A DNA stretch of 64,000 bases from Myxococcales bacterium (GTDB taxonomy: Bacteria; Myxococcota_A; Polyangia; Haliangiales; Haliangiaceae), in assembly GCA_016707895.1 (NCBI GenBank), contig JADJGV010000002.1, forward strand, positions 655,695 through 719,694. Direction: 5' to 3'. Shown in pieces: positions 1-59,985 of the stretch. Both the position numbers and the translations under genes were made by a program. The stretch's first letter is position 1. The number at the start of each line of letters is the position of its first letter. The notes under the pieces are model-generated. The model searched no databases. It was not told the origin of the DNA and saw only the letters and a program-made list of their open reading frames with translations.

Positions 1-15
1 AACCCGGTCGACTAC

Positions 16-1287
16 TTGACCTACGGCTACGTCGAGAACACCTACCTCCAGGCCGCGATCGACTGGGGCGTGCCCGCGACGCTGGCGTTGGTGCTGGCGC
101 TCGGCGCGCTCACGCGGGCCGCGGTGAAGCGGTGGCGCCACGGGCCGATCGAGGCCGGGGCGCTCGGGGCGCTGGCCTCGATCGCGATCCACGACGTCGT
201 CGATTTCAGCCTGGCCATGCCCGCGGTGGCGATGGCCGCGATCGCGATCGCCGCGCTGCTGGTGCCGGCGCGGCTCGGCACCGACGAGCACCGCGCGCCG
301 GTGGCGCGGGCGGTGCTGGGGCGACGCGCGGGCCTGCTGGCGGCGGCGGCGGCGGTGGTGGTGCTCGCGGCCACGCCGCTGGGCCGCGGCTTCCGGGTCG
401 AGCGCGCCGCGCTGCCCGCCGGCGCGTCGCCAGCGGAGGCGCTCGCGGTGCTCGAGCGTCACCCCGCCGATGGGCTGGCCGCCGGTCACGTCGCGGCGGC
501 GCTGTACGCGCGCCGCGATCCGCGCGCGCTGCCGATGATCCGCCACGCGCTGGCGCTGCGTCCCAACCACGGCGGGTTGCACCTGCTGGCCGCGCGGATG
601 ATGACCTCGACCCAGCGCCCGGACCAGGCCGCGGGCCAGTACGCCCAGGCGATCGTCTACACCCGGGCGATCGATCCGATCATCGACGAGATCCTGGCGC
701 GGTTGCCCGGCGTCGGCGCCGACGGCGTGCCGGAGGCGGCGCGGGCGCTGCCCGACGATCCCCGCCACGTCGGGCGGGTGTGCAGCGCGCTGGCCGCGCG
801 CGGTCGCCACGACGTCGCGCTGGCGTACACCGACGCGATCGCCGCTCGCGACCCCGACCGCGCCGACGTCCAGCTCAACCGCGCCGCCGCGGCGCTCAAG
901 CTCGGTCGCTGGGCGATCGCGCTGGCCGCGGCGCGGGCCCTCACCGGGCGCATGCCCGGGCCGCGGCCTGCGCTGATGCAGGCGTTTGCGCTCGACGGGA
1001 TGGGACGCCAGGCCGACGGCGTCGCGATCCTGGCCGCGCTGCCGCCGCCCGACACGGCGGCGGAGCGAGGGGAGGTCGCCCTGTACCTGGCCCACCTGCA
1101 GTCAAAGCTCGGTCGCCATCCGGCGGCGCGGGAGACGCTGATCGCGGTTGTGGACCAGCTCGATGGCTCTCCTCGGCTGGAGGCCGAGCTGCGCAGGCTG
1201 CTCGCGGTGGTCGAGGACGCGCTCGGCCACACCCAGGCCGCCGCGTGGGAACGAAAGCGCGCCGCCGAGCTCATTGGCTCTCCGTGA
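16..1287 (+). CDS. Wzy/O-antigen-ligase-like C-terminal membrane segment fused to TPR repeats (5' end outside window)
   Basis: ORF open from the window edge. Hydrophobic helices (IDWGVPATLALVLALGALT, IAIHDVVDFSLAMPAVAMAAIAIAALLV) typical of the end of a Wzy_C domain, followed by Ala/Leu/Arg-rich TPR-like repeats. Sits beside wzc and capD-like genes. Confidence 0.5.
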   Translation: MTYGYVENTYLQAAIDWGVPATLALVLALGALTRAAVKRWRHGPIEAGALGALASIAIHDVVDFSLAMPAVAMAAIAIAALLVPARLGTDEHRAPVARAVLGRRAGLLAAAAAVVVLAATPLGRGFRVERAALPAGASPAEALAVLERHPADGLAAGHVAAALYARRDPRALPMIRHALALRPNHGGLHLLAARMMTSTQRPDQAAGQYAQAIVYTRAIDPIIDEILARLPGVGADGVPEAARALPDDPRHVGRVCSALAARGRHDVALAYTDAIAARDPDRADVQLNRAAAALKLGRWAIALAAARALTGRMPGPRPALMQAFALDGMGRQADGVAILAALPPPDTAAERGEVALYLAHLQSKLGRHPAARETLIAVVDQLDGSPRLEAELRRLLAVVEDALGHTQAAAWERKRAAELIGSP

Positions 1288-1391
1288 TTTCAGGTACATG
1301 GGACGCAGCCAAGGAGCTGGATCTGCTCCCACAACTGTCGCAGGATGTGCGCCTGAACGCCCCGGACACCATGGGCGTCTAAGGATCCACT

Positions 1392-5566
<4,175 letters not shown>

Positions 5567-5662
5567 CCGCGTCGCACGCGCGTGTGCGGCGCGCCACGCC
5601 TCGGTGATTTTCTCGGGGTGCGGCGGCTCGTCGCAGCGGGGCGGGCCGGGTATCGTGCGCCG

Positions 5663-6121
5663 ATGCGCCGTACCCTCGCCTCGCTCCTCGCCTCGACCAC
5701 GCTGCTCCTTGTCGCCTGTGGCGACGACGGCGGCTCCACCCCGCCCATCGACGCGCCGGTGTCGATCGACGCGCCGGGCGCCGTCGATGCGCCGGCGACC
5801 ATCGACGCGCCGGTGGCGATCGACGCGCCTGCGGCCACGACGGTGGTCGAGGTCCCGTGCGCCGGCGCCACCATCGCCAGCGAGGTCAGCGCGCCGGGCT
5901 TCCAGTTCACGATCACCGACAGCACGATCGCGGTCGACGCGATCGTGCGTTTCACGATGCCGCTCTCGCACAGCGCCGTGAGCGGCAGCCCGGCCGGCAC
6001 CAACGACGGCAAGTTCACGGTCAGCTTCAACGAGACCAAGTGCCTGCGCTTCACCGCCGCCGGCACCTTCCCGTTCTGGTGCAACCCGCACCAGTTTACC
6101 GGCTCGATCACCGTGCAGTGA
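5663..6121 (+). CDS. Lipoprotein with (I/V)DAP pentapeptide repeats and a C-terminal cupredoxin-like domain
   Basis: Lipoprotein signal (LLLVACGDDGG). Five tandem xIDAP repeats. C-terminal WCNPHQFTGS matches the plastocyanin CxPHQ copper loop, but a Ser occupies the usual Met position. An upstream His (PLSHS) sits about 42 aa before the Cys. Confidence 0.55.
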   Translation: MRRTLASLLASTTLLLVACGDDGGSTPPIDAPVSIDAPGAVDAPATIDAPVAIDAPAATTVVEVPCAGATIASEVSAPGFQFTITDSTIAVDAIVRFTMPLSHSAVSGSPAGTNDGKFTVSFNETKCLRFTAAGTFPFWCNPHQFTGSITVQ

Positions 6122-8316: not shown

Positions 8317-8464
8317 GCGGGTTGCTCAGCGGCGGTCGGCGCGATAGTGCCGGGCCAGTCGTCGATGCTCGAGATCCACGACCCGGAAGGATGCCACCGC
8401 GTAGAATCGGTGGGTTGGCTCGCATTGTCGCTGGAATGCGGTCCGACCATGGTGCGGTTTGGGG

Positions 8465-8491
8465 AGATCGGCGGCGAGGGCGGCGTACTAT
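8465..8491 (+). promoter_or_regulatory. Conserved promoter block (AGATCGGCGG-N11-TACTAT) upstream of toxin-like gene copy 1
   Basis: The same block recurs with identical internal spacing (21 nt from the block start to the TA(C/G)TAT hexamer) upstream of copy 2 at 15149-15175. The -10-like hexamer lies 67 nt upstream of the ATG. Confidence 0.35.
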
Positions 8492-8557
8492 CTGCATCCC
8501 GTGGGAAACCGCGGCGCGTAGCGGCCGATAGCGGCGGCACCGGAGATCGAGGCACGC

Positions 8558-11500
8558 ATGAGCAGGGAACATCGCGATGAAGGCAAGGAAGCAGCACCGC
8601 CAGCGGCGAGCGTGGGCGCGAGCCCGACGCGCCGCGTGGACGCGCCTGTCGTGGACGCCGGCTACCAGGCTCAGTGCGACGCTCGCGTGCTCCAGTTTCT
8701 CAGCGCGCCGTTGCCGCTGACGCCGTCGGAGCGTGAGGCGCGCGAGGCTGGCGGTGATGCGAGCGGCGTGCACGCGGCCGCGGAGCGCGGTGTCTCGGGT
8801 GCTGCGACCGTGCTGCCGCACGGCGACACCATCCAGGCGGCCTTCGGCCCGCACGACATCTCTGGCGTGCGGGCCCACGTCGGCGGCGCCGCCGCCGACG
8901 CCTGCGGTGCGATGGGCGCGAGCGCCTACGCGACCGGCAACCAGGTCGCGTTCGCCGGCCAACCCGACCTGCACACGGCCGCTCACGAGGCCGCCCACGT
9001 CGTGCAGCAACGCCAGGGCGTCCAGCTGTATGGCGGCGTCGGCGAGGTCGGCGATGTCTACGAGCGGCAGGCGGATGTGGTGGCGGACGCGGTGGTGGCG
9101 GGCAAGTCGGCGGCGGGGCTCTTGGGGGCGCCGTCGGCGGAGGCTGTTTCAACGAAGTCAGTGCAGGCCTTCGGCGGGCTCTACATCGCAGGTGCGTCCC
9201 CAGCGGCGCAACCCGCCGCGAACGGCGGCGCGGCGCCGGCGTCGACCGCTGCGGTCACCGGTCCCAGCGTGAATCGGCTGGTGGCGACTGATCCGTCGGT
9301 CGAGTTCGGTCCGACGCCCGTCGGCGCGACGACGTACAAGCCGCTCACGTTCGTCAACCGGGGTGCCGAACCGGTGGAACCCAGCGACTTCGTCGTCCGT
9401 CCGGGTGTCAACGCTCAAGAGGACGACTTCAGCGTCGCCGGCGGCGACGCGACGAGCGGCGCCGCGCTCGCGCCGGGCGAAGCGATCTCGCTCCAGGTCG
9501 CGTTTCATCCGCACCCGCGTCCTGACCAGGATCCCAAGCGGTGGCCGGGGCGCGTCGCGCACATCGACGTGCTCGACCTCGCGGGCGCGCGGGCCGGTTC
9601 GGTCAAGGTGCGCGGGAAGCCGCGGCCGACCGATGAAGCGACGCAGGGGGCGCACGAGGCGGCAGAGTTGGTAGGTGCGAGCCGCAACCACGCCGACGTG
9701 GCGGCGCCGGTGTCGTACGCCGACATGCTCGCGAACCTGCGGGCCGCCCGTGAGCTGCTGTCGACCGGCGACCGTGATCACGCCCAGGCGCTGATCCACG
9801 CGGTGCGCGAGCGGATGGCCGGGACGCTACGCGAGGACAAGTCATGGCCGCGCCTGCGTGGGTTCGGCCTCGGCGCGCAGGCCGGCCTTCACCTGATCAA
9901 CGAAGCGTACGACGCGGTGGTGGCCGCCGACCGTGGCCTGGGTGCGGACTGGCGGGTCGACGGGGACAAGCTGGTGATGATGCTGGAAGCCGCGCGCGAG
10001 CCGATCCAGTTCGTCCTCAAAGAAACAAAGGACGCGCCGACGCTCCGCGCGTTCCACGACGCGTCGCCCGCGGTGATGGTGGGAAACGCGATCGAGGGGA
10101 TGGCCGAGCACACGATCGAGATGGTCACTGACGCCGAGTACACGGTCGGCTATCTCTCGGGCCTGGTCGAGGGCGCGTACGGCGCGGTCCGCGATCTCGT
10201 CATGGGCTTCGCCGACCTGGTCGGCATGACCGCCGACATCGTGAAGGCGATGTGGTCGCGCGGCTTCGTGGGCGCGGTCCAGCACTTCGGGCGCCAGGTC
10301 GCTGACATCTTCGACAAGGCGCCGGAGTTGCTCGAGGCGCTCGGTGCGGACTTCGCGCGCAAGTGGAACCAGCACGGCTCGTTCGACCGCGGGAACTTCC
10401 GCGGCGAGGTGATGGGCTACATCGCCATGCAGATCCTGCTCATCATCGCCACGGCCGGCGAGGGTGCCGCGGCCGCTGCGGGGCGGTGGCCGAAGGTGTT
10501 GCAGGTCATCCGCACGCTCGACGCCGCCGGCGACATCTTCACGTGGGCCGAGACGGCAGCCGACGGCGTCCGCGCGCTCCGCAAGGGCGCCAAGGCGGTC
10601 GGCAAGGCGGAGGACGCGGTCGACGCGGCCGGCAAGGGCGGGGGCAAGGTGCTGAAGATGGGCGGCGGCGGTGCGCCGGATGCGCCGTCGGCCGGCAAGG
10701 TCCCCGGTGGGCCGGAGGTCGACGCGCCGAAGGCGGGTGCGCCGCAGGCCGATGCGCCGCACGCCGATAGGCCGGCAAGCGCAGGCCCCGATGCTCCGCG
10801 CAAGGGCGGCCCGTACAAGGCCCCGGACGATCCGACGCGGGAGCCGCATCATCCCGTGCGCGCACTCGAGGATGACGAGCTCGCCAGCTCGAAGGACTTG
10901 CGCCCCGTTCAACGCGGACGAGACCTGGTCGCGGATGGCTCGCGCCCCGTTGGCAAGGTCCTGAAGACCCGAGCTGAAGGCGAAGCCATCCTCCAACTCC
11001 TCGCGCAAGGCGACCGAAACGCGCTCGCCGCACTCGACATCGTGGACATCCCGAAGAAGCTGAAAGTGACCGAGCGCGAGTGGGCGCTCGTGCAAACGCG
11101 CGATGGGTTTCTTGTGTACATCGGCGACGCGGCGAGGGTCGACTTGCCGGCGAATGTTCGCTCCGTAGCGCACAGCCATCCGACGCACAAGCAGGGAAAG
11201 CGCCTTGAGTTGGACGTCCCGGATGGAAAGGGCGGCGTAGCCTTCACGGATATCGTGAAAGATCCCCACAAGGCAGCGGACACGGGCCTTCTGCCGTCTG
11301 CCATGGATCTGCACGTCGTCTCCGATGGTACGGAACACACGCTCCATACGCAGTTCGTGATGGACTGGGATGGTACGATCACCAACGCGGTAGAGGGGGA
11401 CACGCGGCCACGCGTACAAGTACGCATCAGCAAGTCGCGGGTTATTCGCTACAACGAAGGCCGGAAAGGCTACTGGTATCAAGCGCAGTTGGACGTCAGC

Positions 11501-11632
11501 GCTGGCGGGCAGGCCATCTGGAGCGGCGACTTCTTCGGCCGAAGGTCCTTCATTGCCGCCGACGATCAGGTGAAGTTTCATCGTTTCCCGGAGCTGGAGT
11601 ACCCGCCGTCAGCGGACCAAGTCGATCCATGA
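8558..11632 (+). CDS. Large multidomain polymorphic-toxin-like protein, copy 1: N-terminal DUF4157 HExxH zincin-like domain, Ig-like (ASH/choice-of-anchor-D-like) domain, hydrophobic central domain, DAP-rich linker, conserved C-terminal domain of unknown function
   Basis: 1024 aa. N-terminus ([28 protein letters not shown] ... [16 protein letters not shown]) matches the DUF4157 pattern including HExxH. About 75% identical to the 15235-18342 paralog over the N- and C-terminal domains. 3' third is lower GC than the 5' part. Confidence 0.8.
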
Positions 11633-12519
11633 GTTGCTTCACCTATCCTGAGTTCTACACATGCTGTGACGGGCGGTTTCTCGTTCGCCGTCGTTTGATT
11701 CTGGGCACGGGGATCTACGACGGAATCCGGACTAGCGATCAGCGGCCTCTTCTCGTTACCAGCGTTCAGCCCCATCGACTCGATAGCTTGATCGATGCGA
11801 TCACGTATGAGGTACCAGGCACGACCAAGCTCCTGGGGGTTACACAGATCGATCTCGGCTCGTGGCAGCCGCAGCCAGGCGATGACCTTGACGATCCGTG
11901 CATCGACACAAAGGAGGACCTCCCTGAAGGATTCGTGCTGGTCGTCGAGACGCGGCCGGTTGGGCGGTCCCTTCGCATCCTGGGCCCAGGCGGGCCGCTG
12001 GGCGCTGTCGGTATCGGGCACGGGCTCCTTCTGACCGCGAGCGCCGCCGCACAAGCGGACGTGTTCCTCGAAGGGATCCGACCCGAGACCGTGTATGCGG
12101 ACGGCGACCTGTACAGCGGATGTCATGCACGCCTATGGCGCGTCGAGATGAGCCCACGGCGGCAAGCCGAGTTCCGTGGAGCCTTCGAACCCGGCGGCTT
12201 CTTTGCGCCGGAGATCCTGTGCTCTGAACCACCGACGCCGACCAGCGATGCGTTTGCGGCGGCGGCGGTACTCTGGTGGTTCGCCACTGGCAGCGATCCG
12301 TTCGGTGGTGCGAACGTGGACTTCACCCAGCGAATCGTCGACGGCCAGCTCGAGCCGTTCCAAGGACCTCCCGAACTCGGCGAGGTCCTGGTGCCGATGC
12401 TGGCGCGCGATCCCGCGGCCCGGCCGTCGGCGGCCGAGTCGGCGGATCGCCTCGCGGCGCTGGCCTGTCGCTGGGATGTGCCCATCGCGCCGTTTCCGCC
12501 GCCCGGGCTCGATCAGTGA
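11629..12519 (+). CDS. Pseudokinase-like partner protein (putative immunity/antidote) of toxin-like copy 1
   Basis: ATGA start/stop overlap with the upstream gene. Kinase-fold landmarks are present in order (Gly-loop [13 protein letters not shown]-like FAPEIL, subdomain [21 protein letters not shown], subdomain [12 protein letters not shown]). The beta3 Lys, HRD Asp and DFG are replaced (RPLLVT, GIRPE, YSG). Paralog of 18339-19223. Confidence 0.7.
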
Positions 12520-12538
12520 CCGTACGGGGAGCCAGCGA

Positions 12539-13033
12539 ATGAGCGGGTCGGATGAGCGATTCGACGACGTTGTCGACGTTGGCGAAGGACAGCATGCGCG
12601 CTTGCGCGACATCGCAAGACAGGACGCGAGTGCGGCATGTGCGGAGTTGGAGGCAATGCTGAGGAGCTCCAGCGGGTACCGGATCAGGCGATACGTCGAG
12701 GAGGTCCTCCTCGGCGGGGTAGATCACATGGCCTGGGCATCCGTGCACGGACGACTGCCCGACAAGGTAGCGCGCCTTGCTGGCGCGTTGGGGCGGCCGA
12801 TTGGCGATGCCGAGCTGAAATCGGTCGCGAGTGTTGCCGAGTTGCTGCCGATGCACGTCGCCGTCGTGCGCGAGTACTGTTCCAGGAAGGCTCTCGTCGC
12901 GGCGGTGCAGTACGTGCGATTCATCTGCGCGGCCAGGTTGGAGGTGGCGATGGACTATGTGGAGTATGTTGGAGCGGGTTCCATGCGTCACGACGACTGG
13001 GTTGCACGTCGCCTTCCGCACTTTGGCCCCTGA
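12539..13033 (+). CDS. Hypothetical cytoplasmic protein (lower-GC segment)
   Basis: ATG 19 nt after the upstream stop, with a GGGGA Shine-Dalgarno-like sequence. 164 aa. Codon usage has lower GC3 than host genes. No recognisable domain. Confidence 0.4.
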   Translation: MSGSDERFDDVVDVGEGQHARLRDIARQDASAACAELEAMLRSSSGYRIRRYVEEVLLGGVDHMAWASVHGRLPDKVARLAGALGRPIGDAELKSVASVAELLPMHVAVVREYCSRKALVAAVQYVRFICAARLEVAMDYVEYVGAGSMRHDDWVARRLPHFGP

Positions 13034-13737
13034 TGCGCCGGACGAAGTCGGTGCCCTGTGCGTGTACGCATGAGCCACGCGTCGCTGGTTGGTCGACCAC
13101 CGCGCGGCGGGTGTTCGAGCGGCACGCGACCGCGAACATCGTGGCGCTGATCGTGTGTGGGATTCCGGCGCTGTACCTCGTGACGCATGACCATGCGGTG
13201 CTGGGCGCGGCGCTGTGCGCCGGCCCTGCTGCGGCGCTGGCGTACGTGCACTGGTCCGCGCCGCCGCGGCAGCTGCGCCGGCTGGTTGCGAGGACCCGCG
13301 GACACCTTCCGTCGACGGACGGGCGCGTCGCGCTGCGAGGGCGGGTCGCGGCGATCGGTGCGCCGCTCGCCGTCCCCGCAACCGCGGCGGTGGGGGCGGC
13401 GTACTGGTGGCGCACCATCGACACCAGCGAAGGCAGCCCGGTGACGTCGGACGAAGGTGTCGACGCGACCGACTTCGTGTTGCGATGCGGCGACCAGTTG
13501 GTCGCGGTGGAAGGCCTGCGGGCGCGCGTGCTGTTCGATCCGCGGGACGCCGACGTCACCGATCGGGATGCCAGCGGCTGGCGCGAGGTCCAACTCGCGC
13601 GTGTGGGCGACGAGGTCGTCGTCGAGGGCTGGCTTCGTCTCGGTCCGAGCACCGATCCGCACCGCGCCGCGGCGACGCTGTCCGGGTCGGACGCGCAACC
13701 AACGATCGGGCTCATCGCCGGTGGCCGAGGGCGATGA
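13033..13737 (+). CDS. Hypothetical membrane protein
   Basis: TGATG overlap with the upstream stop. Hydrophobic helices IVALIVCGIPALYLV and LGAALCAGPAAALAYV. 234 aa. Confidence 0.4.
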   Translation: MRRTKSVPCACTHEPRVAGWSTTARRVFERHATANIVALIVCGIPALYLVTHDHAVLGAALCAGPAAALAYVHWSAPPRQLRRLVARTRGHLPSTDGRVALRGRVAAIGAPLAVPATAAVGAAYWWRTIDTSEGSPVTSDEGVDATDFVLRCGDQLVAVEGLRARVLFDPRDADVTDRDASGWREVQLARVGDEVVVEGWLRLGPSTDPHRAAATLSGSDAQPTIGLIAGGRGR

Positions 13738-23593: not shown

Positions 23594-24957
23594 GGCCGCG
23601 GATCGGGGCGGCGCTCCACCACGATCACGTGCTCGCGCTTGCCGCGCTCACCGAACGCGGTGCGCTCGAGCGCGCCGAGGATCGGCCGCTGCTGCGACGC
23701 CCACGCCACCACCGCCAGGCGATCGTCGAGCGCCGCGCGCAGATCGTCGTCGGCGTACATCGGCCGCACGCCGGCCATCGAGTCGCCGATCACGAACGCC
23801 GCCCACGCGCCCGGCACCATCACGCCGGCCAGCGCGTCGAGCCACGCGATCTGGCTCTCCTTCCAGCGCCGGGCCGCCTCGAGCGAGTTCGACGCGAAGC
23901 CGCGCCGCGTGCCCAGCTCGCCCTCGTCGAAGGCGCGGTGGCGGATGCCGAGGAAGTCGAAGCGCAGCCGGTGCTGATCGGCGTAGTCGTAGGTGCCGGG
24001 GTAGGGCGGCGAGGTGACGACCGCGCCGATCCGCGGCAGGCCCAGCGCGCCGAGCGTGCGGGCGTCGGCCTCGTGCACCACCGTCGGCGGCATCCGGCCC
24101 ACCGCGAGGTCCTGGATGCCGGCCACGATCATCGACACGCGCTCGCCGAACCAGCGGGCGGCCGCGCCGCGCGGCACGTGGCGCTCGACCCAGGTCGGGT
24201 CGGTGTCGCTCTTGCGGCTCGACACCTTGTACAGCACCGCCGACAGCGCGATCGTCAGCAGCTCGGCGACCTCGGGGTCGTCGTGGCGCACGTCGTCGAT
24301 CGCGGTGGCGATGGCCTCGAGCTCGCGGCGCACGTGCGGCGCGAACCACTTGCCGATCCGCCGCTGGCGCGCGTTGGGATCGAAGCCCTCGGGCGCGCGC
24401 ATCGGCGCCGCCGAGAACCCGGCGCGCCGCGCCTCCTTGCCCGACATCAGCACCTCGGCCGCGATGCGCAGGCCGGCGTCCTTGGCGTTGCGGCGGCGGG
24501 GCACCGGCGGGGTCCAGGTCTTGACCCGCGCCAGCCGCACCGCCAGCGGGTTGAGATCGACGCCGACCGCGACCACGCCCAGCGCGCGGGCCTCGACCAG
24601 CGTCGTGCCCGAGCCGCAGAACGGATCGAGCAGCGCGGTGCCGTCGGGCATGCGCTCGCTGACCACCTCGACCAGCGCGCGCGCGGTGGCGGGGTGGAGG
24701 CGCGCCGGGTAGGTGTGGACCGGGTGGGTCAGGCTGTCGGCGACGACGTCGTCGTGGGCGGCCGCGAGCAGCGCCTCGGCCAGCGCCTCGCTGATCGCGC
24801 GATCGCCGCCGATGTCGATGCGACCGGGGGCGCGCGGCATCGACAGGCCGCGGCGGGGGCCACCGGGCGCGCGCGGGCCGGGCGGCGGTCCGCTCGGGCG
24901 GGGGCGCGGGCGCGCGGGGCGTGGGCCGCGGCGCGGCGGTGGCGTACGTCCTGCCAT
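23590..24957 (-). CDS. SAM-dependent methyltransferase (putative N6-adenine/N2-guanine DNA or RNA methylase; start uncertain)
   Basis: Motif I LLDPFCGSGTTLVEA and motif IV VVTSPPYPG. The first roughly 40 codons are Pro/Arg-rich. An alternative start MPRAPGRIDIGG lies at 24840. Confidence 0.6.
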   Translation of the reverse strand: MAGRTPPPRRGPRPARPRPRPSGPPPGPRAPGGPRRGLSMPRAPGRIDIGGDRAISEALAEALLAAAHDDVVADSLTHPVHTYPARLHPATARALVEVVSERMPDGTALLDPFCGSGTTLVEARALGVVAVGVDLNPLAVRLARVKTWTPPVPRRRNAKDAGLRIAAEVLMSGKEARRAGFSAAPMRAPEGFDPNARQRRIGKWFAPHVRRELEAIATAIDDVRHDDPEVAELLTIALSAVLYKVSSRKSDTDPTWVERHVPRGAAARWFGERVSMIVAGIQDLAVGRMPPTVVHEADARTLGALGLPRIGAVVTSPPYPGTYDYADQHRLRFDFLGIRHRAFDEGELGTRRGFASNSLEAARRWKESQIAWLDALAGVMVPGAWAAFVIGDSMAGVRPMYADDDLRAALDDRLAVVAWASQQRPILGALERTAFGERGKREHVIVVERRPDPRP

Positions 24958-45222: not shown

Positions 45223-46656
<1,434 letters not shown>

Positions 46657-50053: not shown

Positions 50054-51268
50054 CTACGCGTACTCGATCTGGATCGTCTCGATGATCGTCGTCACCGCGC
50101 GCTTGACCTGCTCGACGTCGGGATCGCGGACGACGACGTAGCCGTCGCCCTCGTAGCTGTCGGAGCGCGGCGCGCCGATCGTGGGCAGGCGCGACTCGAC
50201 CGCGAGGTGGCCGACCAGCGCGTTGGCGCGGTCGACGCCGCGCACCGCCTTGACCCGGCCGCGGCCGACGCCGCGCAGGTAGGCGACGCCGACCGCGTAC
50301 TTGCGGGTCCACGGGCCGTCGAAGGCGTCGTCGATCACCGCCCGGGCCCAGGCGCGGTACAGGTCGGCGTCGTGGGCGTAGCCGTTGGCCAGCACGATGT
50401 GCGCGCCGGGCGGGCGCGCGGCGATCTCGCCGATCGCCAGCGAGCCGTCGTCGCGGCGGAACCACTCCATGTGGGTGAAGCCGGTCTCCAGGCCGAGCGC
50501 GGCCACCGCCTTGACGCCCAGCGCGCGGGCGTCGGCGAACTCGGGGCCGTCGATGTCGCGCGGCAGCACGACGACCCACTGGATCCACGGCGTCTCCATC
50601 ACCTCGAGCGGCGTCGGGTAGTAGCGCGAGCACGACTGGAAGCGGACCTGGCCGCCGATCGTGATGGTCTCGAAGCTGTACTCGCGGCCGCGCAAGAACT
50701 CCTCGGCCAGCGCCGGCCGCTCGGGGCTGGCGTGCAGCGCCCGCAGCGCGGCGCGCAGCTCGTCGAGCGAGCCGATCCGCCACGTCGACTTGCAGCCCAT
50801 GCCGGCCGGCGGCTTGAGCACCAGCGGCAGCCCGACCTCGGCGACGAACGCCTCGGCGTCGCCCCAGGTGCGGATCAGCTTGTGGCGCGCGCACGGCAGG
50901 CCGTGGCGGCGCAGCTCGTCCTTCATCCGCGCCTTGTCGCGGAACAGCTCGGCGGTGCGCGGCGAGGTGCCGGGCACGCCCAGCGCCTGCCGCACCTCGG
51001 CCAGCTGCACCTGCAGCGGCTCGAGGATGCCGAGCACGCGGTGCAGCTTGCCGTGGCGGCGCTCGAGCGCGCGGGCGCCGGCGATCAGCTGCTCGGTGTC
51101 GAGGCCGTCGGCCACGGTGACGACGTCGGCGAACAGCTTGGCGTCGTCGCCGCGCGGCGGCTCCTGGGCCAGGCCCAGCAGGCGGACGCCGTCGAGGCGG
51201 GCCGCGGCGCGCGCGAAGCGCAGCGTGGTCTCGAGCGGGAACGGCGCGGCGAACACCACGTTGCGCAT
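50054..51268 (-). CDS. ATP-grasp domain amidoligase (paralog A)
   Basis: 404 aa. ATP-grasp core ([17 protein letters not shown] ... [14 protein letters not shown] ... [24 protein letters not shown]). Paralogous to 51330-52547 and 58740-59969. Confidence 0.7.
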
Positions 51269-51329
51269 CGCCGCGTTGTACCATGCGAGGTGGCGGGCCC
51301 GCGGGCTCGCCGAAGGAGCTCGCGCCCCC

Positions 51330-52547
51330 GTGAAGGTCGTCTTCCTCGCGCCCGCCTATCCCCCCGAGATGCAGCAGTACACGCGCGGCCTGGCCGAGGT
51401 CGGCGCCAGCGTGTACGGCGTCGGCGACGCGCCGGTCGCGTCGCTGCCGCGCTCGCTCAAGCAACACCTGACCGACTACCTGCAGGTGCCGCGGCTCCTC
51501 GACGAGGCCGACGTCACCGAGCGGGTCTACCAGTGGGTGCGTGGCCGCGGCGTCGATCGCGTGCTGGCCAACTGGGAGGTCATGGTCTTGACCGCGGCGC
51601 GGCTGCGCGAGCGCCTCGGCGTGCCCGGCATGAGCTACGACGCGGTGCGCGGGTTCCGCGACAAGCAGCTGATGAAGGAGCGCGTGGCCGCCGCCGGCCT
51701 GCGGGTGCCGCGCGCGGTCCGGGTGCGCAGCGCCGCCGAGGCCCGGGCCGGGGCTGCGCAGCTCGGCTACCCGCTGGTGCTCAAGCCGATCGCCGGCGCC
51801 GGCAGCGCCGACACCTTCCAGGTCGACAGCGACGCCGACCTCGAGCGGGCGCTCACCGCCACGCAGCACGTGCCGGAGTGCAGCCTCGAGGAGTTCATCG
51901 AGGGCGACGAGTTCACGTTCGACACCGTGTGCATCGGCGGCAAGCCGGCGTTCATGAACGTCGCGCAGTACCTGCCCAAGCCGCTGATCGCCCGCACCAA
52001 CGAGTGGATCAGCCCGGTCATCGTCACCGTGCGCAACCTCGAGCAGCCGGCGCTGACCGGCGGCGTGGCGCTCGGCAAGCGCGTGCTCACCGCGCTGGGC
52101 ATGGGCGACGGCTTCACCCACATGGAGTGGTTCAGCAAGCCGTCGGGCGAGGTGGTGTTCGGCGAGATCGGCTGCCGCCCGGGCGGCGCCCACCTCGTCG
52201 ATCAGATGAACTACACCTGCGACATCGACCTGTTCCGCGAGTGGGCGCGGGTGTCGTGCTGGGGCAGCTTCGAGGCGCCGACCACCCGCAAGTACAACGT
52301 CGCGATCATCTTCAAGCGGGCGCGGGGCCAGGGCCGCATCACCCGGATCACCGGGCTGCGCGAGTTCCTGCGCGCCCACGGCGAGCACGTCGTCGAGTCC
52401 AAGCTGCTGCCGGTCGGCGCCCAGCGCCGCAACTGGAAGCAGACCCTGGTCTCCGACGGCTACATCCTGCTCCGGCACCCCGACTGGCGCACCGCGGTCG
52501 AGCTGGCCAACATCGTCGCGACCGACGTCACGATGTACGCGGAGTAG
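51330..52547 (+). CDS. ATP-grasp domain amidoligase (paralog B)
   Basis: GTG start at VKVVFLAPAYP. Same architecture as paralog A (GYPLVLKPIAGAGSADT ... THMEWFSKPSGEVVFGEIGCRPGG). Divergently transcribed from paralog A. Confidence 0.7.
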   Translation: MKVVFLAPAYPPEMQQYTRGLAEVGASVYGVGDAPVASLPRSLKQHLTDYLQVPRLLDEADVTERVYQWVRGRGVDRVLANWEVMVLTAARLRERLGVPGMSYDAVRGFRDKQLMKERVAAAGLRVPRAVRVRSAAEARAGAAQLGYPLVLKPIAGAGSADTFQVDSDADLERALTATQHVPECSLEEFIEGDEFTFDTVCIGGKPAFMNVAQYLPKPLIARTNEWISPVIVTVRNLEQPALTGGVALGKRVLTALGMGDGFTHMEWFSKPSGEVVFGEIGCRPGGAHLVDQMNYTCDIDLFREWARVSCWGSFEAPTTRKYNVAIIFKRARGQGRITRITGLREFLRAHGEHVVESKLLPVGAQRRNWKQTLVSDGYILLRHPDWRTAVELANIVATDVTMYAE

Positions 52548-54594
52548 GATCGGCGGGCGCGCCGCGCGGCGTGTCGAGGGTGCGGTCGGGGACGTCGTCG
52601 TCGGCGGGCTCGCTGTCGGCCTTGGCCACCGCCACCGCGCTGCGGTCGAGGCTGTCGCTGGTGCGGTCGGGCCCGTCCTTGGACAGCTGGTCCTCGAGCA
52701 TCCGCGAGGCGATGTCCATGAAGTCTTCCTCGGTGACGATCCCGACCAGCCGGCCCTCGTCGACCACGGGCAGGCAGCCGACCTTGAGCCGGCGCATCAG
52801 CTGCAGCGCCTCGAGCGTGCGGGTCGCGGGCGTCACCGTCGTCGGGTCGCGCTTCATGATCTCGGCCACCGGCGTGCGCCGCGCCGAGCCGCCGTCCATG
52901 ATGAAGCGCAGCACCGCGCGGTGGGTCACCACGCCGACCAGCCGGTGGTCCTTGTCCTCGACCGGGACGTGGCGGATGCGCTCCCAGATCATCAGGTTGG
53001 CGACCATCTCGATGGCGTCGTCGGCCTGCACCGTGAACAGGTCGCTGGTCATGTAGTGCTCGATGCGCCGGTAGTTGCCGCCCTTGGCGTGGGCCTCGTC
53101 GAGCCGGGCCCGCTCCCACTCCGACACCGGGCGCCCCGAGTCCTGGCGGGCGACGGTCGCGGCCACCAGCGCGTTGGCGCGCTCGGCCGGCGTCGAGCGA
53201 TCGCGCAGCGAGTTCCACGACGACAGCTGCCAGCGGGCGCCGGTGCGCGCGGTGCGGACCCGCTCCTCGATGACGCCGAGGTAGCGCTTGACGTCGGTCG
53301 GCACGACGCCCTGGCGGCGCAGCCCGGCCTCGGCCAGCGGCAAGAGCCGCTCGAGCATCAGCTCGCGCGCCGAGATGTCCTCGCCGTCGAGCCAGGTGAA
53401 GTGCGCGCCGATGCCCTCGCGGGCCGCGGTGTAGAAGTTGGCGCCGGCCTGATCGAAGTCCATCCGGCGAGGCACGTCGTCGAGCCGGTGGCCCAGCTCG
53501 ACCATCAGCCCGCACCACAGCGCGGCGTTGGCCATCTCGTCGAGCGTGCTGGGCCCGGCCGGCATGATCCGGTTCTCGATGCGCAGGTGCGGCTTGCCGT
53601 CGATGATGCCGTAGCAGGCGCGGTTCCAGCGGTAGATCGTGCCGTTGTGCAGGCGCAGCGCCTTGAGCTGGGGCGCCTCGCCGCGATCGAGCATCGCCAT
53701 GGGATCCTCGTCGAGGTCGGTGCCGACCAGCGGCCGGAACCGGGCGATGTCCTCCTTGAAGATCTCGACCACCGACTGCCGCACCCAGCGGGTGCCGAAG
53801 CTGACCCGGGCCTCCTGCTCGCGGATCGTGCCGCCCTTGGCGCGGGTGTCGACCGCCTGCCGGAACAGCGCGATGCGGGTCTCGGCCCACAGCCGCTTGC
53901 CGAACAGGATGGGCGAGTTCGACGACACCGACATCAGCGGCCCGGCCAGCAGCTGGGCCAGGTTGTAGTAGCGCGCGAACTCCTCGGGGCTGACCTGCAG
54001 GTGGACCTGGAAGCTCGAGTTGCAGGCCTCGACCATCACCGAGTCGTGCTCGATGGTCAGCTCGTCGAGCCCCTTGATCGCGAACTCGAAGCGGCCGCCG
54101 CGCATCGCGGTCAGCACCTTGTTGAGCTGCAGGTAGCGCTTGCTCGGCACCATGCCGTCGAGGCCCAGGTGGCTCTGGCGCATCGTGGGCAGGATGCCCA
54201 TCAGCACCACCTCCATGCCCAGCTCGCGGGCCGCGGTGCGCGCCTTGCCGACCAGCAGGTCGAGCTGGGCGTGCATCTTCGACAGGCCGTCGCCGCCGAA
54301 CACCTGCGGGTCGCAGTTGGCCTCGAGCTGGAACTGGCCGAGCTCGGTGGTGTAGTGCGGGTCGGGCCGCAGCTTGTCGAGCAGCGCCAGCACGCCCCGG
54401 GCCGGCGCCCACTGCTCGTCGATCAGGAACAGCTCCTGCTCGGCGCCGATCCGCCGCACGCCGGTCTCGAACCGGCGCTCGGCGATCATCCGGTCGAGCG
54501 CGCGCAGGTCGGCGAGCACCGCGCTGGTGAACTCGCGCTGGCGCTCGGCGTCGAGGGCGCCGTCGGTGTCCTTGTGCTCCCGCGTCGTCGTCAT
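52528..54594 (-). CDS. Glutamate-cysteine ligase family 2 (GCS2/YbdK-like carboxylate-amine ligase) fused to tandem C-terminal CBS domains
   Basis: N-terminal GCS2-like core (RIGAEQELFLID ... NSSFQVHLQV ...). C-terminal CBS pair (HYMTSDLFTVQADDAIEMVANLM ... GCLPVVDEGRLVGIVTEEDFMD). Start set at MTTTREHKD with ATGA coupling to the upstream esterase. Confidence 0.7.
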   Translation of the reverse strand: MTTTREHKDTDGALDAERQREFTSAVLADLRALDRMIAERRFETGVRRIGAEQELFLIDEQWAPARGVLALLDKLRPDPHYTTELGQFQLEANCDPQVFGGDGLSKMHAQLDLLVGKARTAARELGMEVVLMGILPTMRQSHLGLDGMVPSKRYLQLNKVLTAMRGGRFEFAIKGLDELTIEHDSVMVEACNSSFQVHLQVSPEEFARYYNLAQLLAGPLMSVSSNSPILFGKRLWAETRIALFRQAVDTRAKGGTIREQEARVSFGTRWVRQSVVEIFKEDIARFRPLVGTDLDEDPMAMLDRGEAPQLKALRLHNGTIYRWNRACYGIIDGKPHLRIENRIMPAGPSTLDEMANAALWCGLMVELGHRLDDVPRRMDFDQAGANFYTAAREGIGAHFTWLDGEDISARELMLERLLPLAEAGLRRQGVVPTDVKRYLGVIEERVRTARTGARWQLSSWNSLRDRSTPAERANALVAATVARQDSGRPVSEWERARLDEAHAKGGNYRRIEHYMTSDLFTVQADDAIEMVANLMIWERIRHVPVEDKDHRLVGVVTHRAVLRFIMDGGSARRTPVAEIMKRDPTTVTPATRTLEALQLMRRLKVGCLPVVDEGRLVGIVTEEDFMDIASRMLEDQLSKDGPDRTSDSLDRSAVAVAKADSEPADDDVPDRTLDTPRGAPADPTPRTS

Positions 54595-55349
54595 CGCACC
54601 CCTTCGCGTAGCCACTGCTCGAGGATCTGCGGCAACATCTTACGCCAGGTGATCCAGTCGTGGGGCCAGTCGGGGCCCCAGGAGTCGACCCGGTTGGGCA
54701 CCCCGGCCTTGCCCAGCACCTTGGCCAGGTTCCACGACTCGCCGATGTCCTCGGCCTTGCCCTCGCCCGAGACGATGTGGACGTAGCGGGTCCGCAGCAC
54801 CTCGAGGTGGCGGCCGCCCAGGGTCGGCACGAAGTGCAGCGGCGACGACACCCAGAAGTGGTCGGTGAACTCGCGGGCGTCGTAGAACCGGCGCAGGTCG
54901 TAGGTGCCGCTCATCGCGATCGCGCGGGTGAAGACGTCGGGGAACCGGCACACCACCGCCGCGGCGTGGAACGCGCCGATCGACGCGCCCGCGGTCCAGA
55001 TCGGGAGGTCGGCGGTCTTGCAGTCGGCGCGGATCGCCGGCACCACCTCCTGGCGGACGTAGTGGTGGAACTGGTTCTGCAGCCACATCTGGTGCTGCGG
55101 CGACCGCTCGCGGGTGAGCAGCGCCTTGCCGGCCACCGAGTCGCACGAGTAGACCTTGAGCTGGCCGCTGTCGAGCAGCGGGGCCAGCACGTCCATCATC
55201 TGGAACCGCTCGACCTCCTCGGCGTCGCCGCCGGCGGTCGGGAACAGCAGCAGCGGCTGGCCGATGGTGCCCCACTTGACCATCGTGACGTCGCGCTCGA
55301 GGCGGTCGCTGCGCCAGCGGCCGACGACCTTGTCGCCGCGCTCACCCAT
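54591..55349 (-). CDS. Alpha/beta-hydrolase esterase (putative esterase family)
   Basis: GASIGAF nucleophile elbow. Esterase-D/Fes-like C-terminal domain. 252 aa. Confidence 0.6.
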   Translation of the reverse strand: MGERGDKVVGRWRSDRLERDVTMVKWGTIGQPLLLFPTAGGDAEEVERFQMMDVLAPLLDSGQLKVYSCDSVAGKALLTRERSPQHQMWLQNQFHHYVRQEVVPAIRADCKTADLPIWTAGASIGAFHAAAVVCRFPDVFTRAIAMSGTYDLRRFYDAREFTDHFWVSSPLHFVPTLGGRHLEVLRTRYVHIVSGEGKAEDIGESWNLAKVLGKAGVPNRVDSWGPDWPHDWITWRKMLPQILEQWLREGVR

Positions 55350-56610
55350 GGCTGGCACCACCCGCGGGGCCCCCGGTGCCGGGCTCGGCGCGCCACGCCT
55401 GGATGCGCTTCCAGAACAGCTCGGTGAACGGCTCGACCTCGTGCTTGGGGAACAGCGCCGCGACCTTGGCCCGCACCGCGCCCTTGGCGGTCTCGGTGCC
55501 GAAGAACTCCCACGCCACCTCGTCGAGGTTGGCCAGGTGGGTGGCGCAGAACTCCTCGAAGCGGTCGGCCTCGAAGCGCTGCTTGGCGATCGCCGCGTAG
55601 GCCCGCAGCTTGTCGCGGTACGGCCGGTCGCGATCGGCGGCGATCGCGTAGAACGGCTCCCAGTCCAGCGTCTTGCGCATCGGCCGCTTGGTCACCGCGC
55701 AGAAGATCGACCACCGCAGGTTGGCCTTCACCAGCCACGGGAAGTGGCGGTGGAGCGACGTCACCTGCGAGTCGGGGCACGGGTTGGCGAAGTCGATCGG
55801 GAACCAGTCGCCGCCCTTGCGCAGCGCCTCGCACGAGTTGAAGTCCCAGCCGAAGAACGCGTTGATCGTCAGCGTCGTGTCGCGCAGGATCTCGGCCTCG
55901 TCGGCCGACACGAAGTCGGTGGCCTGGGTGTAGCGATCGTGGAGCGCGGCGTCGGGGTCGTACTTGACCAGGTGGGTCTGCGGGCCCAGCCCGATGCAGC
56001 GCACGAAGCTGTCGAACGGGTGCACCGCGGCCTGCAGGTGCATGACGCTCTTGCCGCTCTCCTCGTAGCGGGCCTTGAGCTGGGCCTCGTCGGCGCAGCG
56101 GCTGACCGCGCGCCAGCCGCCGCCGTCGTACGGCTTCATGAACAGCGGGTAGCCGAGCTGCTGGCCGATCGCGCGCAGGTCGAACAGCTTGGCGTAGCGC
56201 TTGAGCGTCGGCGCCAGGTCGGGCAGCGGCTCGTAGTCCTTGGGCGGCACCATCCAGGTGGCGGGGATGGGCATGCCCAGCGCCATCATCGCGCAGTACG
56301 AGGTGTGCTTCTCGTTGGCCTGCACCGACCACGGGTTGTTGAGGACGTAGAGGCCGTCCATCAGGATGGCCTTTTTGATCCACTCGCGGCTGGTGTGGTA
56401 CCAGTGGGTCAGCCGGTCGAGGACGACGTCGTACTTGCACGGCTGGCGCAGGTCGAACGGCTCGATCGTGACGCGCTCGGTGGCGATCTTGACGGTGTCG
56501 CCCTGCCACGGGATGGCGAGGTCGAGCTTGCCGAGGATCTGCTCGTAGCAGATCGGCCAGCAGATGTCGGCGCCCAGCGAGAGACCAATGGTGCGGGTGA
56601 CGGGGGCCAT
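55342..56610 (-). CDS. Glutathionylspermidine-synthase-like (GSP-synth, YgiC/YjfC family) ATP-grasp amidoligase
   Basis: LNNPWSVQANEKHTSY and LFMKPYDGGGWRAVSR parallel the YgiC motifs LEPAWKSIISNKALL and VVKPIFSREGANVSI. Start set at the second Met, with AGGA 8 nt upstream. Confidence 0.55.
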   Translation of the reverse strand: MAPVTRTIGLSLGADICWPICYEQILGKLDLAIPWQGDTVKIATERVTIEPFDLRQPCKYDVVLDRLTHWYHTSREWIKKAILMDGLYVLNNPWSVQANEKHTSYCAMMALGMPIPATWMVPPKDYEPLPDLAPTLKRYAKLFDLRAIGQQLGYPLFMKPYDGGGWRAVSRCADEAQLKARYEESGKSVMHLQAAVHPFDSFVRCIGLGPQTHLVKYDPDAALHDRYTQATDFVSADEAEILRDTTLTINAFFGWDFNSCEALRKGGDWFPIDFANPCPDSQVTSLHRHFPWLVKANLRWSIFCAVTKRPMRKTLDWEPFYAIAADRDRPYRDKLRAYAAIAKQRFEADRFEEFCATHLANLDEVAWEFFGTETAKGAVRAKVAALFPKHEVEPFTELFWKRIQAWRAEPGTGGPAGGASHG

Positions 56611-56620
56611 CGCTTCCATC

Positions 56621-57757
56621 CTATTCGTAGACGAGCAAGAACGGGCCCGGCAGCAGCCACGACAGCGCGTCGCGCAGGCGATCGCGCCAGTTCTCCCAGT
56701 TGTGACCGTCCCGGGCTTCCACGTAGCGGACATCCATGCCTGTGCCGAGCAGCATCGGCACCAGCGAGCGGTTCTCGTAGATCAGCGACTCGTACATGCC
56801 GCAGCTGACGAACACCCGCTCCGAGACCGCGGTCGGCTCGGCGCGGAACCGGTTCATGAACGCGACCACCGGGTCGAACAGCGGGCCGCGGTGGTTGCGG
56901 TCGCCGATGTCGGTGAAGGCGAAGCTGCCCGACTGCAGCAGCAGCCGGCCGTAGAAGCCGGGGTAGCGGCACGCGGTCGACAGCGCGGCGACCGCGCCGA
57001 AGCTGGCGCCCATCAGGCACCGGCTCTGCGGCACCGCCTCGAGCGGGAAGGTGCGCTCGACGAACGGCACCAGGTCCTCGGTCACGTAGCGGGCGTGGCG
57101 CTCGTCGTCGGCGTACTCGCGCAGCCGGTCGGGCGAGCTGGTGAACACGACGATCGCGTCGGCGACCTCGAGCCGATCGATCAGGTTGTCGAGCACGGTG
57201 CCCATCGACGCGTAGCGCAGGTAGTCGTGGCCGTCGTGCACGACCAGGAGCGGGTAGCGCCGGCTGCGCTTGAACCGCGCCGGCACGTACAGCCCGAAGC
57301 TGCGCCGGCCGAAGGTCTTGGAGTCGAGGAAGATCTCGTCGAGGCGGCCCGGCGGCGCGGCGCGGTCGTGGTGGATCCAGCCCGGCACCTCGTAGCCGGT
57401 GCCGTGGGCCACCGAGTTGGCGCCGAACGGATCGCGGGCCAGCGCCCCGTTGAGCGGGTCCTGGATCCACTCGCCCTTGCCGTGGCGGACGACCTCGAGC
57501 TTGTACTCGACGCGCGAGCCCGGCGGCAGCTGCATCGTCAGGTGCCAGACGTCGGTGCCGTCGACCCGGGCCAGCGACTGCGACGACGGCAGGCCGAACA
57601 CCCAGTGCTTGAGGTGCACCGCCTCGGCGTCGCCGCGCCAGACGAACGTGATCGACGGGCCGACCACCACCGGGAACTTGTGGCGGCCCATCCACGCGTC
57701 GACCGCCTCGCGGGTGCGCGGGGTGGCCTCGAGCTCGGCGATCGCGGCCGCGCTCAT
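56621..57757 (-). CDS. Esterase with N-terminal Ig-like domain (enterochelin-esterase/putative-esterase family)
   Basis: Start MSAAAIAELE. VVHDGHDY and GASFGAVAAL nucleophile elbow. C-terminal HNWENW. ATGA overlap with the upstream gene. Confidence 0.6.
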   Translation of the reverse strand: MSAAAIAELEATPRTREAVDAWMGRHKFPVVVGPSITFVWRGDAEAVHLKHWVFGLPSSQSLARVDGTDVWHLTMQLPPGSRVEYKLEVVRHGKGEWIQDPLNGALARDPFGANSVAHGTGYEVPGWIHHDRAAPPGRLDEIFLDSKTFGRRSFGLYVPARFKRSRRYPLLVVHDGHDYLRYASMGTVLDNLIDRLEVADAIVVFTSSPDRLREYADDERHARYVTEDLVPFVERTFPLEAVPQSRCLMGASFGAVAALSTACRYPGFYGRLLLQSGSFAFTDIGDRNHRGPLFDPVVAFMNRFRAEPTAVSERVFVSCGMYESLIYENRSLVPMLLGTGMDVRYVEARDGHNWENWRDRLRDALSWLLPGPFLLVYE

Positions 57758-59969: not shown

Positions 59970-59985
59970 TCTCTCCCTCGGGATC

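Follow-up and report, generated by a model that had tools for sequence, protein, structure and literature searches.

A pseudokinase paired with a JAMM-like C-terminal domain in toxin-like cassettes of a Myxococcales bacterium: a probable immunity protein

A 64,000-nucleotide stretch of DNA from a Myxococcales bacterium of the family Haliangiaceae (GenBank assembly GCA_016707895.1, contig JADJGV010000002.1, forward-strand positions 655,695 to 719,694), hereafter the window, encodes two large toxin-like proteins, T1 and T2, each followed by an overlapping gene whose product, partner 1 or partner 2, had been predicted from the sequence to be a complete protein kinase fold with a degenerate catalytic site. 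The partners are pseudokinases, which keep a kinase fold, have lost its essential motifs and are conserved under selection, and they belong to a large, old family rather than being a local oddity. In other genomes the pseudokinase accompanies one specific domain, the JAMM-like domain found at the C-terminus of T1 and T2, and this pairing is the strongest result of the analysis. Each partner is probably the cognate immunity protein, or stoichiometric inhibitor, of the C-terminal domain encoded immediately upstream.

Toxin-like proteins and their C-terminal domain

T1 and T2 share a common layout, in which an N-terminal DUF4157 domain is followed by a variable middle, a hydrophobic and Pro/Ala-rich pre-toxin region and the C-terminal JAMM-like domain (Table 1). 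The DUF4157 domain (PF13699, eCIS_core, with the motif HEAAH) scores 47.2 bits in T1 and 33.2 bits in T2 against a cut-off of 22, and passages of two surveys (PMC8213781, PMC3482391) treat it, under the name “PVC-metallopeptidase”, as marking toxins linked to extracellular contractile injection systems (eCIS). The N-termini of T1 and T2 are homologous, their last ~510 amino acids (aa) are 57% identical and their C-terminal domains 73% identical. The two middles are unrelated, that of T1 containing an Ig-like region (ASH/choice-of-anchor D, aa 232–318) and that of T2 a weak LysM-like region (aa 435–472).

Invariant residues among members of the C-terminal domain are E841, H872-S-H874-P and P-S914-x-x-D917 in T1 numbering. 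These match the signature “E, H[ST]H, S, D” given for the Tox-JAB-2/DUF4329 toxins in a passage of the polymorphic toxin survey (PMC3482391), at E841, H872-S-H874, S914 and D917. The spacing from HxH to the serine is 39 residues, against about 7 in JAB/MPN+ (JAMM) proteins, and the domain departs from Tox-JAB-1 and Tox-JAB-2 in carrying a conserved insertion of ~30 aa between HxH and SxxD and an extra C-terminal half of beta-sheet. A comparison of eight members with Pfam gave no family at E<=10, including JAB, Prok-JAB, RadC and DUF4329, and there was no match among NCBIfam models or PDB sequences. The JAMM label, drawn from the sequence signature, is therefore tentative, and the domain could define a new toxin family. 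Homolog searches with the domain retrieved first one and then seven proteins. A scan of reference genomes retrieved only two species representatives, and among such genomes the close family is thus rare.

Pairing of the pseudokinase with the JAMM-like domain

In the window each partner gene begins within the stop codon of its toxin-like gene, through the overlaps ccATGAgt for T1 and partner 1 and ccATGAgc for T2 and partner 2. Hidden Markov models (HMMs) of the C-terminal domain and of the pseudokinase were run against every fetched locus, leaving out L032 and L033, for which the contigs were too short. A pseudokinase and a JAMM-like domain occur in the same operon in 18 of the 19 locus groups with readable flanks, the exception being P0013, an orphan pseudokinase ~1 kb downstream of another pair. 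The pseudokinase gene directly follows the domain twice in the window and in L001–L004, L007–L009, L010–L012, L013/L014, L015, L016, L017, L024, L025, L026, L028 and L029, and the junction is either an overlap, as in the window, or a gap of a few bases. Among metagenome contigs with readable downstream sequence, adjacency was found in five of five. This strict genetic coupling, together with the ATGA overlaps, bears out the proposal in the original prediction that the partner is the specific cognate of the toxin-like C-terminal domain.

The proteins that carry the JAMM-like domain differ considerably in their other parts. The pairing is found behind DUF4157 proteins of 1056 and 1678 aa (L007 and L017) and behind a 1092-aa protein with no DUF4157 (L010). 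Relatives also carry other C-terminal domains behind DUF4157, such as CdiA_C in L013, and in L013/L014 the pair occupies a 426-aa orphan-like cassette that comes after the DUF4157–CdiA_C toxin and its small gene. The pseudokinase thus tracks the specific JAMM-like domain and not the DUF4157 scaffold as such.

Four more distant relatives hold the domain within a larger protein. In L031 it is followed by a further 230 aa, then by a 256-aa open reading frame (ORF) and then by the pseudokinase, and in L021 it is followed by a further ~370 aa and then by a single protein in which a 250-aa extension is fused to the pseudokinase. In the L018 protein (positions 3–3764, at least 1253 aa) a JAMM-like region, only partial, occurs with a hydrophobic region resembling CrtO and, at the C-terminus, a domain resembling microbial transglutaminase; downstream come an 89-aa ORF and then the pseudokinase. 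In L023 (JBEEQC010231193.1, positions 2–5760) one protein has a JAMM-like domain and a second such domain whose motif is degenerate, and is followed by a DUF4279 gene and then by three pseudokinase domains spread over two genes. The extra domains of relatives gave no family matches. In all four of these multi-domain proteins the downstream genes mirror the domain layout of the toxin.

The kinase fold of the partners

Partners 1 and 2 are 76% identical, and partner 1 has neither a signal peptide nor a transmembrane segment. With single partner sequences Pfam alone makes no kinase call above its gathering score, as Pkinase (PF00069) reaches 18.8 and 15.8 bits against a cut-off of 31.7 and covers the C-lobe only. 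A profile of the family built from 11 members is more sensitive, matching 810 kinase sequences in the PDB at E<1 with a best value of 1.5e-6. When the family was compared by hhalign with four real Hanks kinases (PknB, the intact kinase at 45223–46656 of the window and two actinobacterial kinases), the alignment spanned residues 106–278 with a probability of 98.7% and an E-value of 4.3e-16.

The AlphaFold2 (AF2) model of the partner has a mean predicted local distance difference test score (pLDDT) of 71.6 and a predicted template modeling score (pTM) of 0.78. A Foldseek search of the PDB with this model returned 1982 matches at E<=1e-3; the 50 matches listed are all protein kinases or pseudokinases, among them Nek7, Abl, PknB, PknA and Trib1, and align over ~290 columns with template modeling (TM) scores of ~0.6–0.65. 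An alignment of that length implies that both kinase lobes are present. By profile comparison and structural model, the partners are therefore members of the protein kinase-like superfamily with a complete two-lobed fold. This is what had been predicted for both partners, and structure prediction followed by Foldseek gave a kinase fold for every match listed.

Scans against Pfam, NCBIfam and PADLOC found sub-threshold matches to the C-lobe only (Pkinase, MAD6, LanL and PD-T4-6), and more specific assignments were rejected. The similarity to the anti-phage defense kinases mad6 and PD-T4-6 is confined to C-lobe residues 190–278 at 24–35 bits; the NCBIfam MAD6 model gives 24.4 bits against a cut-off of 460, and the partner genes of the defense system are absent from the context. 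Membership of the lanthipeptide kinases (LanL) was discarded likewise, with coverage and scores far under the cut-offs and the expected context absent.

Loss of catalytic residues and the remodeled cleft

In the hhalign register the catalytic loop H-R-D-x-K-P-x-N corresponds to L147-E148-G149-I150-R151-P152-E153-T154 of partner 1, and DFG to Y162-S163-G164, with the aspartate facing a gap or the tyrosine. The beta3 lysine is replaced by T44, the HRD aspartate by G149, the catalytic asparagine by T154 and the DFG aspartate by Y162, so that the loss of the first, second and fourth of these, claimed in the original prediction, holds on closer alignment. T44 is the weaker assignment, as the N-lobe is aligned by structure only and the position was taken from the LLVT pattern and a predicted strand; residues 1–66 of partner 1 contain no lysine at all. 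Other landmarks are retained, namely APE (A193-P194-E195), the alphaF aspartate of subdomain IX (D207) and the arginine of subdomain XI (R265). Of the landmarks that had been named beforehand, the catalytic-loop remnant, APE and subdomains IX and XI stand, while the Gly-rich loop departs in part from the canonical form: its G26 and G32 are kept, but an insertion in most relatives makes it roughly G-x4-G-x3-G rather than GxGxxG.

Column statistics were compiled from an alignment of 69 family representatives of 240–320 aa, taken from an exhaustive search. Throughout this set the beta3 lysine position is T, A or S, the HRD aspartate is G in 52 of 69, the catalytic asparagine is L, T or V, and the DFG aspartate is L, F, V or Y. 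Among the 69 sequences the N-lobe conserves not one basic residue, the only acidic residues conserved are the structural E107, E153, E195 and D207, and the acidic residue of alphaC is unconserved. A WNK-like relocation of the lysine, or a shifted aspartate, was thereby ruled out, and alignment with Hanks-type kinases confirmed the loss of the motifs. The former cleft has become fixed for new residues, G149 (52/69), R151 (54/69), P152 (67/69) and R168 (62/69), and R265 is invariant. The family-wide absence of catalytic residues and the conservation of new ones in the cleft indicate a scaffold kept for something other than phosphotransfer.

Some further features of the partners lie outside the catalytic core. 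Many, though not all, family members share a Pro-rich C-terminal tail of the form W-x-[IV]-x-x-[AP]-P-F-P-P-P-G-L, of which residues 281–290 are modeled by AF2 with high confidence; the tail may dock on the kinase body as the tails of AGC kinases do, or may contact the toxin. Between beta4 and beta5 of the N-lobe, close family members share an insertion (residues 75–98 of partner 1, 11851–11922) with the sequence D[11 protein letters not shown], which is conserved among them and which distant relatives lack. With a pLDDT below 50 it is predicted to be disordered, and it may act as a specificity loop. The activation segment is variable and likewise predicted to be disordered.

Size and make-up of the family

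An exhaustive HMMER search with the pseudokinase retrieved 9978 proteins at E<=1e-3, a set dominated by ordinary kinases, and 265 clusters at E<1e-10. The pattern HRDxKxxN is absent from 132 of the 148 proteins listed after the query family, and by sequence the family stands closest to bacterial Ser/Thr kinases. Most members are stand-alone proteins of 260–290 aa, while some have 2–8 tandem pseudokinase domains or an N-terminal extension, and in databases they appear as “hypothetical protein” or “serine/threonine protein kinase”. Giant relatives (P0019 of 1715 aa, P0149 of 2911 aa, P0095, P0035 and P0119) contain 3–8 tandem pseudokinase domains, and some of them mix intact kinase domains with pseudokinase domains; a role as poly-immunity proteins is possible, as is a wholly different one.

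Cassette gain and selection

Contig JAEUJY010000085.1 of Myxococcales MAG-81 (L015) is collinear with the window at 90–92% nucleotide identity and carries the cassette of T2 and partner 2 only, with a T2 ortholog that is 90.6% identical. A block of ~6.7 kb (about 8350–15070), containing T1, partner 1 and three small ORFs, is specific to the window in this comparison. The G+C content of third codon positions (GC3) is 0.73–0.75 in the C-terminal domain of T1 and partner 1 (10805–12519), compared with 0.92–0.96 in cassette 2 (17515–19223) and above 0.9 in most genes of the window. The low GC3 of cassette 1 and its absence from MAG-81 point to acquisition from elsewhere, and suggest a donor of lower GC content.

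Partner 2 and its MAG-81 ortholog share 84% amino acid identity, with a nonsynonymous rate (dN) of 0.092, the highest nearby, and a ratio to the synonymous rate (dN/dS) of 0.27. Neighboring genes are 91–99% identical at the amino acid level, and the toxin domain itself is 94% identical with a dN/dS of 0.14. Partner 2 is thus the fastest-evolving protein in its neighborhood, yet it is under purifying selection.

Function of the partner

Several lines of evidence lead us to favor immunity as the function of the partners. The gene order and the translational coupling through ATGA overlaps fit a toxin and its antidote; the partner follows one domain whatever the N-terminal part of the protein; in multi-domain relatives the layout of the downstream genes corresponds to that of the toxin domains; orphan (P0013) and arrayed (L023) copies exist; cassette 1 has been gained, with foreign codon usage; and the partner is cytoplasmic, catalytically inert and conserved, evolving faster than any neighbor while still under purifying selection. 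Orphan copies are common among immunity genes. In such a system toxin and partner would be co-produced from their overlapping reading frames, and the cytoplasmic pseudokinase would lend its inert kinase scaffold as a binding surface. Bound to the toxin domain, the partner would keep the E/HxH/SxxD site blocked until it is left behind when the toxin is exported, the probable contact residues being the re-fixed Gly149, Arg151 and Arg168 of the cleft together with the variable alphaD–alphaE and activation-segment regions. We infer that the domain is toxic, that physical binding neutralizes it, and that delivery proceeds through an eCIS encoded elsewhere or by another route.

A number of observations weigh against this assignment. 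With ~295 aa the partner exceeds the usual size of immunity proteins, and none of the ORFs in the 64 kb of the window has a Pfam domain of a contractile-injection sheath, tube or baseplate. An immunity gene is lacking for many toxins of the DUF4157/eCIS kind (PMC8213781). An internal JAMM-like domain, as in L018, L021, L023 and L031, might serve as a peptidase in processing instead of being a toxin, and adjacency and co-inheritance would be equally expected of a chaperone or cofactor.

An alternative that we consider unlikely is that the partner is an accessory factor, a chaperone, loading adaptor or regulator, which would stabilize the JAMM-like domain, keep an autoprocessing peptidase inactive until export or be required for loading onto a contractile injection particle. 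Strict coupling carries no direction, and in several relatives the domain lies upstream of other toxin domains, a position described in passages of the polymorphic toxin survey as the usual site of releasing peptidases (PMC3482391). The lack of immunity genes for many eCIS toxins, noted above, is also in keeping with such a role, as is the AAA+ ATPase gene that comes after cassette 2. However, the domain is the last part of both T1 and T2, with nothing beyond it to release, and the orphan P0013 and the multi-copy array of L023 suit immunity better. Chaperones and adaptors of effectors are, moreover, usually encoded upstream of the effector, while the gene immediately downstream is typically that for immunity.

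A more specific proposal, nested within immunity and raised in the original prediction, is that the partner is a target-mimic decoy. The JAMM-like domain would be an enzyme, a peptidase or other, that attacks kinase-fold proteins such as the Hanks-type Ser/Thr kinases, and the pseudokinase, as a descendant of the toxin's target, would soak up the toxin as an uncleavable pseudo-substrate and so protect the large set of kinases of the producer. Hanks-type Ser/Thr kinases are abundant in myxobacteria, and the partners retain the full kinase fold and its substrate-side landmarks (APE, the alphaF aspartate and the subdomain XI arginine), the chemistry alone being lost. The closest relatives beyond the family being bacterial Ser/Thr kinases, and the mixture of intact and dead kinase domains in multi-domain relatives, fit this idea as well. 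There is also an established analogy in plants, where the pseudokinases ZED1 and PBL2/RKS1 trap pathogen effectors and trigger immune receptors of the nucleotide-binding leucine-rich repeat (NLR) class. Against it, the new residues now fixed in the cleft look more like an interface built for its purpose than like simple mimicry, and the activation segment, a likely cleavage site, is variable and predicted to be disordered. Furthermore, Zhang et al. argue in a passage of their survey that toxin JAB domains are possibly nucleases rather than peptidases (PMC3482391). On balance an attack on kinases with a decoy as the remedy seems improbable.

It is very doubtful that the partner is an atypical enzyme on a kinase fold, comparable to the glutamylase SidJ or the AMPylase SelO, that inactivates the toxin chemically or repairs its damage. 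Kinase folds with non-kinase chemistry do exist, SidJ being described in part of one report as neutralizing the SidE toxins (bioRxiv 10.1101/2021.04.13.439722), and conserved Arg151, Arg168 and Glu153 line the cleft. Nevertheless the family keeps no conserved Lys, Asp or Asn for binding nucleotide or metal, nor the alphaC acidic residue. The idea that the partners are functionless, decaying remnants of ordinary kinase genes, which their sub-threshold Pfam scores and the loss of every catalytic motif might invite, deserves practically no credence and is excluded by the conservation data: two copies with intact ORFs, the low dN/dS of partner 2, the same non-catalytic residues kept across the 265 clusters and a confident full-length fold.

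Comparison with known systems

Taken as toxin and immunity protein, the cassettes have much in common with polymorphic toxins (Zhang et al. 2012) and with the DUF4157 toxins of eCIS (Geller et al. 2021), having DUF4157 above threshold, a long linker and a variable C-terminal domain. A small coupled gene directly downstream, cassette gain with foreign codon usage and orphan cassettes are likewise features found in passages of these surveys (PMC3482391, PMC8213781). The differences are that the downstream protein has a kinase fold, that the toxin domain belongs to no Pfam family and that the window holds no structural genes for contractile injection. According to the first of these surveys, in part, Tox-JAB families are paired with the immunity proteins Imm65 and Imm-NTF2-2 (PMC3482391); the partner here, by contrast with those of Tox-JAB-2, has a kinase fold rather than an NTF2 fold and is not a lipoprotein.

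The likeness to Hanks-type kinases such as PknB, PknA and the kinase of the window extends to the two lobes, a homologous C-lobe, APE, the alphaF aspartate and the subdomain XI arginine, with RPE in place of KPxN. Unlike those kinases, the partners have four catalytic residues replaced family-wide, have no transmembrane or sensor domains, stand alone and have a dedicated genomic partner. The resemblance to ZED1 and PBL2/RKS1, dead kinase folds whose task is to be bound by effectors, is an analogy for a possible mode of action: the plant proteins trigger immune receptors, whereas here the cell's own toxin would be neutralized, and the kinship is that of the kinase superfamily only. Other kinase folds serve conflict systems outside ordinary signaling, among them the EssB/YukC pseudokinase of type VII secretion systems, Legionella SidJ and HipS/HipT. 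EssB/YukC is, however, a membrane component of a secretion machine, SidJ is an active glutamylase and the kinase of HipBST is the toxin; an inert protein that stands alone and accompanies a C-terminal toxin domain is not among them.

In passages of the 2012 immunity catalogue (PMC3482391) the word “pseudokinase” is absent, and “kinase” concerns toxin domains or targets. A search of full-text literature for immunity proteins that are pseudokinases or have a kinase fold yielded only EssB/YukC, HipBST and surveys of Legionella, and one for links between pseudokinases and contractile injection systems found none; as both miss many subscription journals, this absence is not proof. Within that coverage the judgment that a pseudokinase is an unusual partner for a toxin-like protein is upheld. 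If immunity is its role, as we think probable, the pair would be a toxin–immunity cassette that combines an unprecedented immunity fold with an unannotated toxin domain.

Other genes in the window

Table 1. Positions of the features discussed, numbered from the first nucleotide of the window.
Feature	Position	Strand	Detail
T1, toxin-like protein	8558–11632	+	ORF, 1024 aa
T1 DUF4157/eCIS_core (“PVC-metallopeptidase”) domain	8831–9019	+	HEAAH at 8984–8998
T1 C-terminal domain, modeled fragment	10805–11629	+	conserved core is the last ~235 aa
T1 signature, E841	11078–11080	+	
T1 signature, H872-S-H874-P	11171–11182	+	
T1 signature, P913-S-A-M-D917	11294–11308	+	
Partner 1, pseudokinase	11629–12519	+	intact ORF, 296 aa
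Partner 1, beta3 Lys position	11758–11760	+	T44
Partner 1, catalytic-loop remnant	12064–12096	+	[11 protein letters not shown]
Partner 1, DFG equivalent	12112–12120	+	YSG
Partner 1, APE	12205–12213	+	
Partner 1, subdomain IX	12244–12291	+	
Partner 1, GPPELG	12364–12381	+	
Partner 1, subdomain XI	12400–12426	+	
Partner 1, Pro-rich tail	12472–12513	+	residues 282–295
Partner 1, PFPPPGLD of the Pro-rich tail	12490–12513	+	
Small ORF, soluble	12539–13033	+	164 aa; GC3, translation
Small ORF, hydrophobic	13033–13737	+	234 aa; GC3, translation
Small ORF, lipobox-like LGAC	13734–14531	+	265 aa; GC3, translation
T2, toxin-like protein	15196–18342	+	ORF, 1048 aa
T2 DUF4157 domain	15586–15747	+	Pfam
T2 JAMM-like C-terminal domain	about 17515–18339	+	
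T2 signature, REWALV	17782–17799	+	
T2 signature, HTHP	17878–17889	+	
T2 signature, PSAMD	18001–18015	+	
Partner 2, pseudokinase	18339–19223	+	intact ORF, 294 aa
Partner 2, degenerate catalytic loop	18774–18806	+	[11 protein letters not shown]
Partner 2, DFG position	18822–18830	+	YAG
Partner 2, FFAPEIL	18909–18929	+	
Partner 2, Pro-rich tail	19176–19217	+	
AAA+ ATPase, N-terminal winged-helix variant	19278–21275	+	PF00004 1.1e-30, PF22977 5e-14

The three small ORFs after partner 1 are chained, with overlapping stops and starts, are absent from the MAG-81 contig and have no match in Pfam, NCBIfam or PADLOC. They could be additional immunity genes, accessory genes or orphan remnants, and may or may not belong to the system. 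Immediately after cassette 2, on the plus strand at 19278–21806, come the AAA+ ATPase, which is conserved in MAG-81, and a DUF1579 protein. The ATPase has generic AAA matches only in NCBIfam and PADLOC; AAA is listed as a core domain of eCIS (PMC8213781), and the protein is possibly a loading ATPase of the Afp15 type. Besides DUF4157 it is the sole element of eCIS type in the window.

The Ser/Thr kinase that the original prediction had pointed to (45223–46656, minus strand) is indeed an ordinary intact Hanks kinase, with VALK, HRDFKPDN, DFG and APE, a C-terminal transmembrane segment and a TPR-like tail, and nothing ties it to the cassettes. Elsewhere on the minus strand, 22580–24957 encodes a DUF72 protein and a DNA-methylase-like protein (N6_N4_Mtase/UPF0020), the latter being the most conserved gene relative to MAG-81 at 99% amino acid identity. 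A cluster at 50054–60002 (minus strand) contains two ATP-grasp ligase genes (50054–51355 and 58740–60002) and a protein resembling GCS2 glutamate–cysteine ligase with CBS domains (52528–54639), and may specify a peptide-ligation or small-molecule pathway.

Implications

If the partner is an immunity protein, the protein kinase fold joins the known immunity scaffolds, and two unannotated families are defined, a widespread bacterial clade of small pseudokinases and a JAMM-like toxin domain for which Pfam has no model. For the pseudokinase clade the database label “serine/threonine kinase” is wrong, and immunity would give it a concrete role of a kind that is rare for bacterial pseudokinases. The strict pairing provides a genomic marker for the JAMM-like domain in toxins of the DUF4157/eCIS type and in other polymorphic toxins. 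Were the partner also a decoy, Ser/Thr kinases would be a target of interbacterial or predator toxins, and the pseudokinase would be a bacterial counterpart of the plant pseudokinase decoys and the first immunity protein that is a fossil of its toxin's target.

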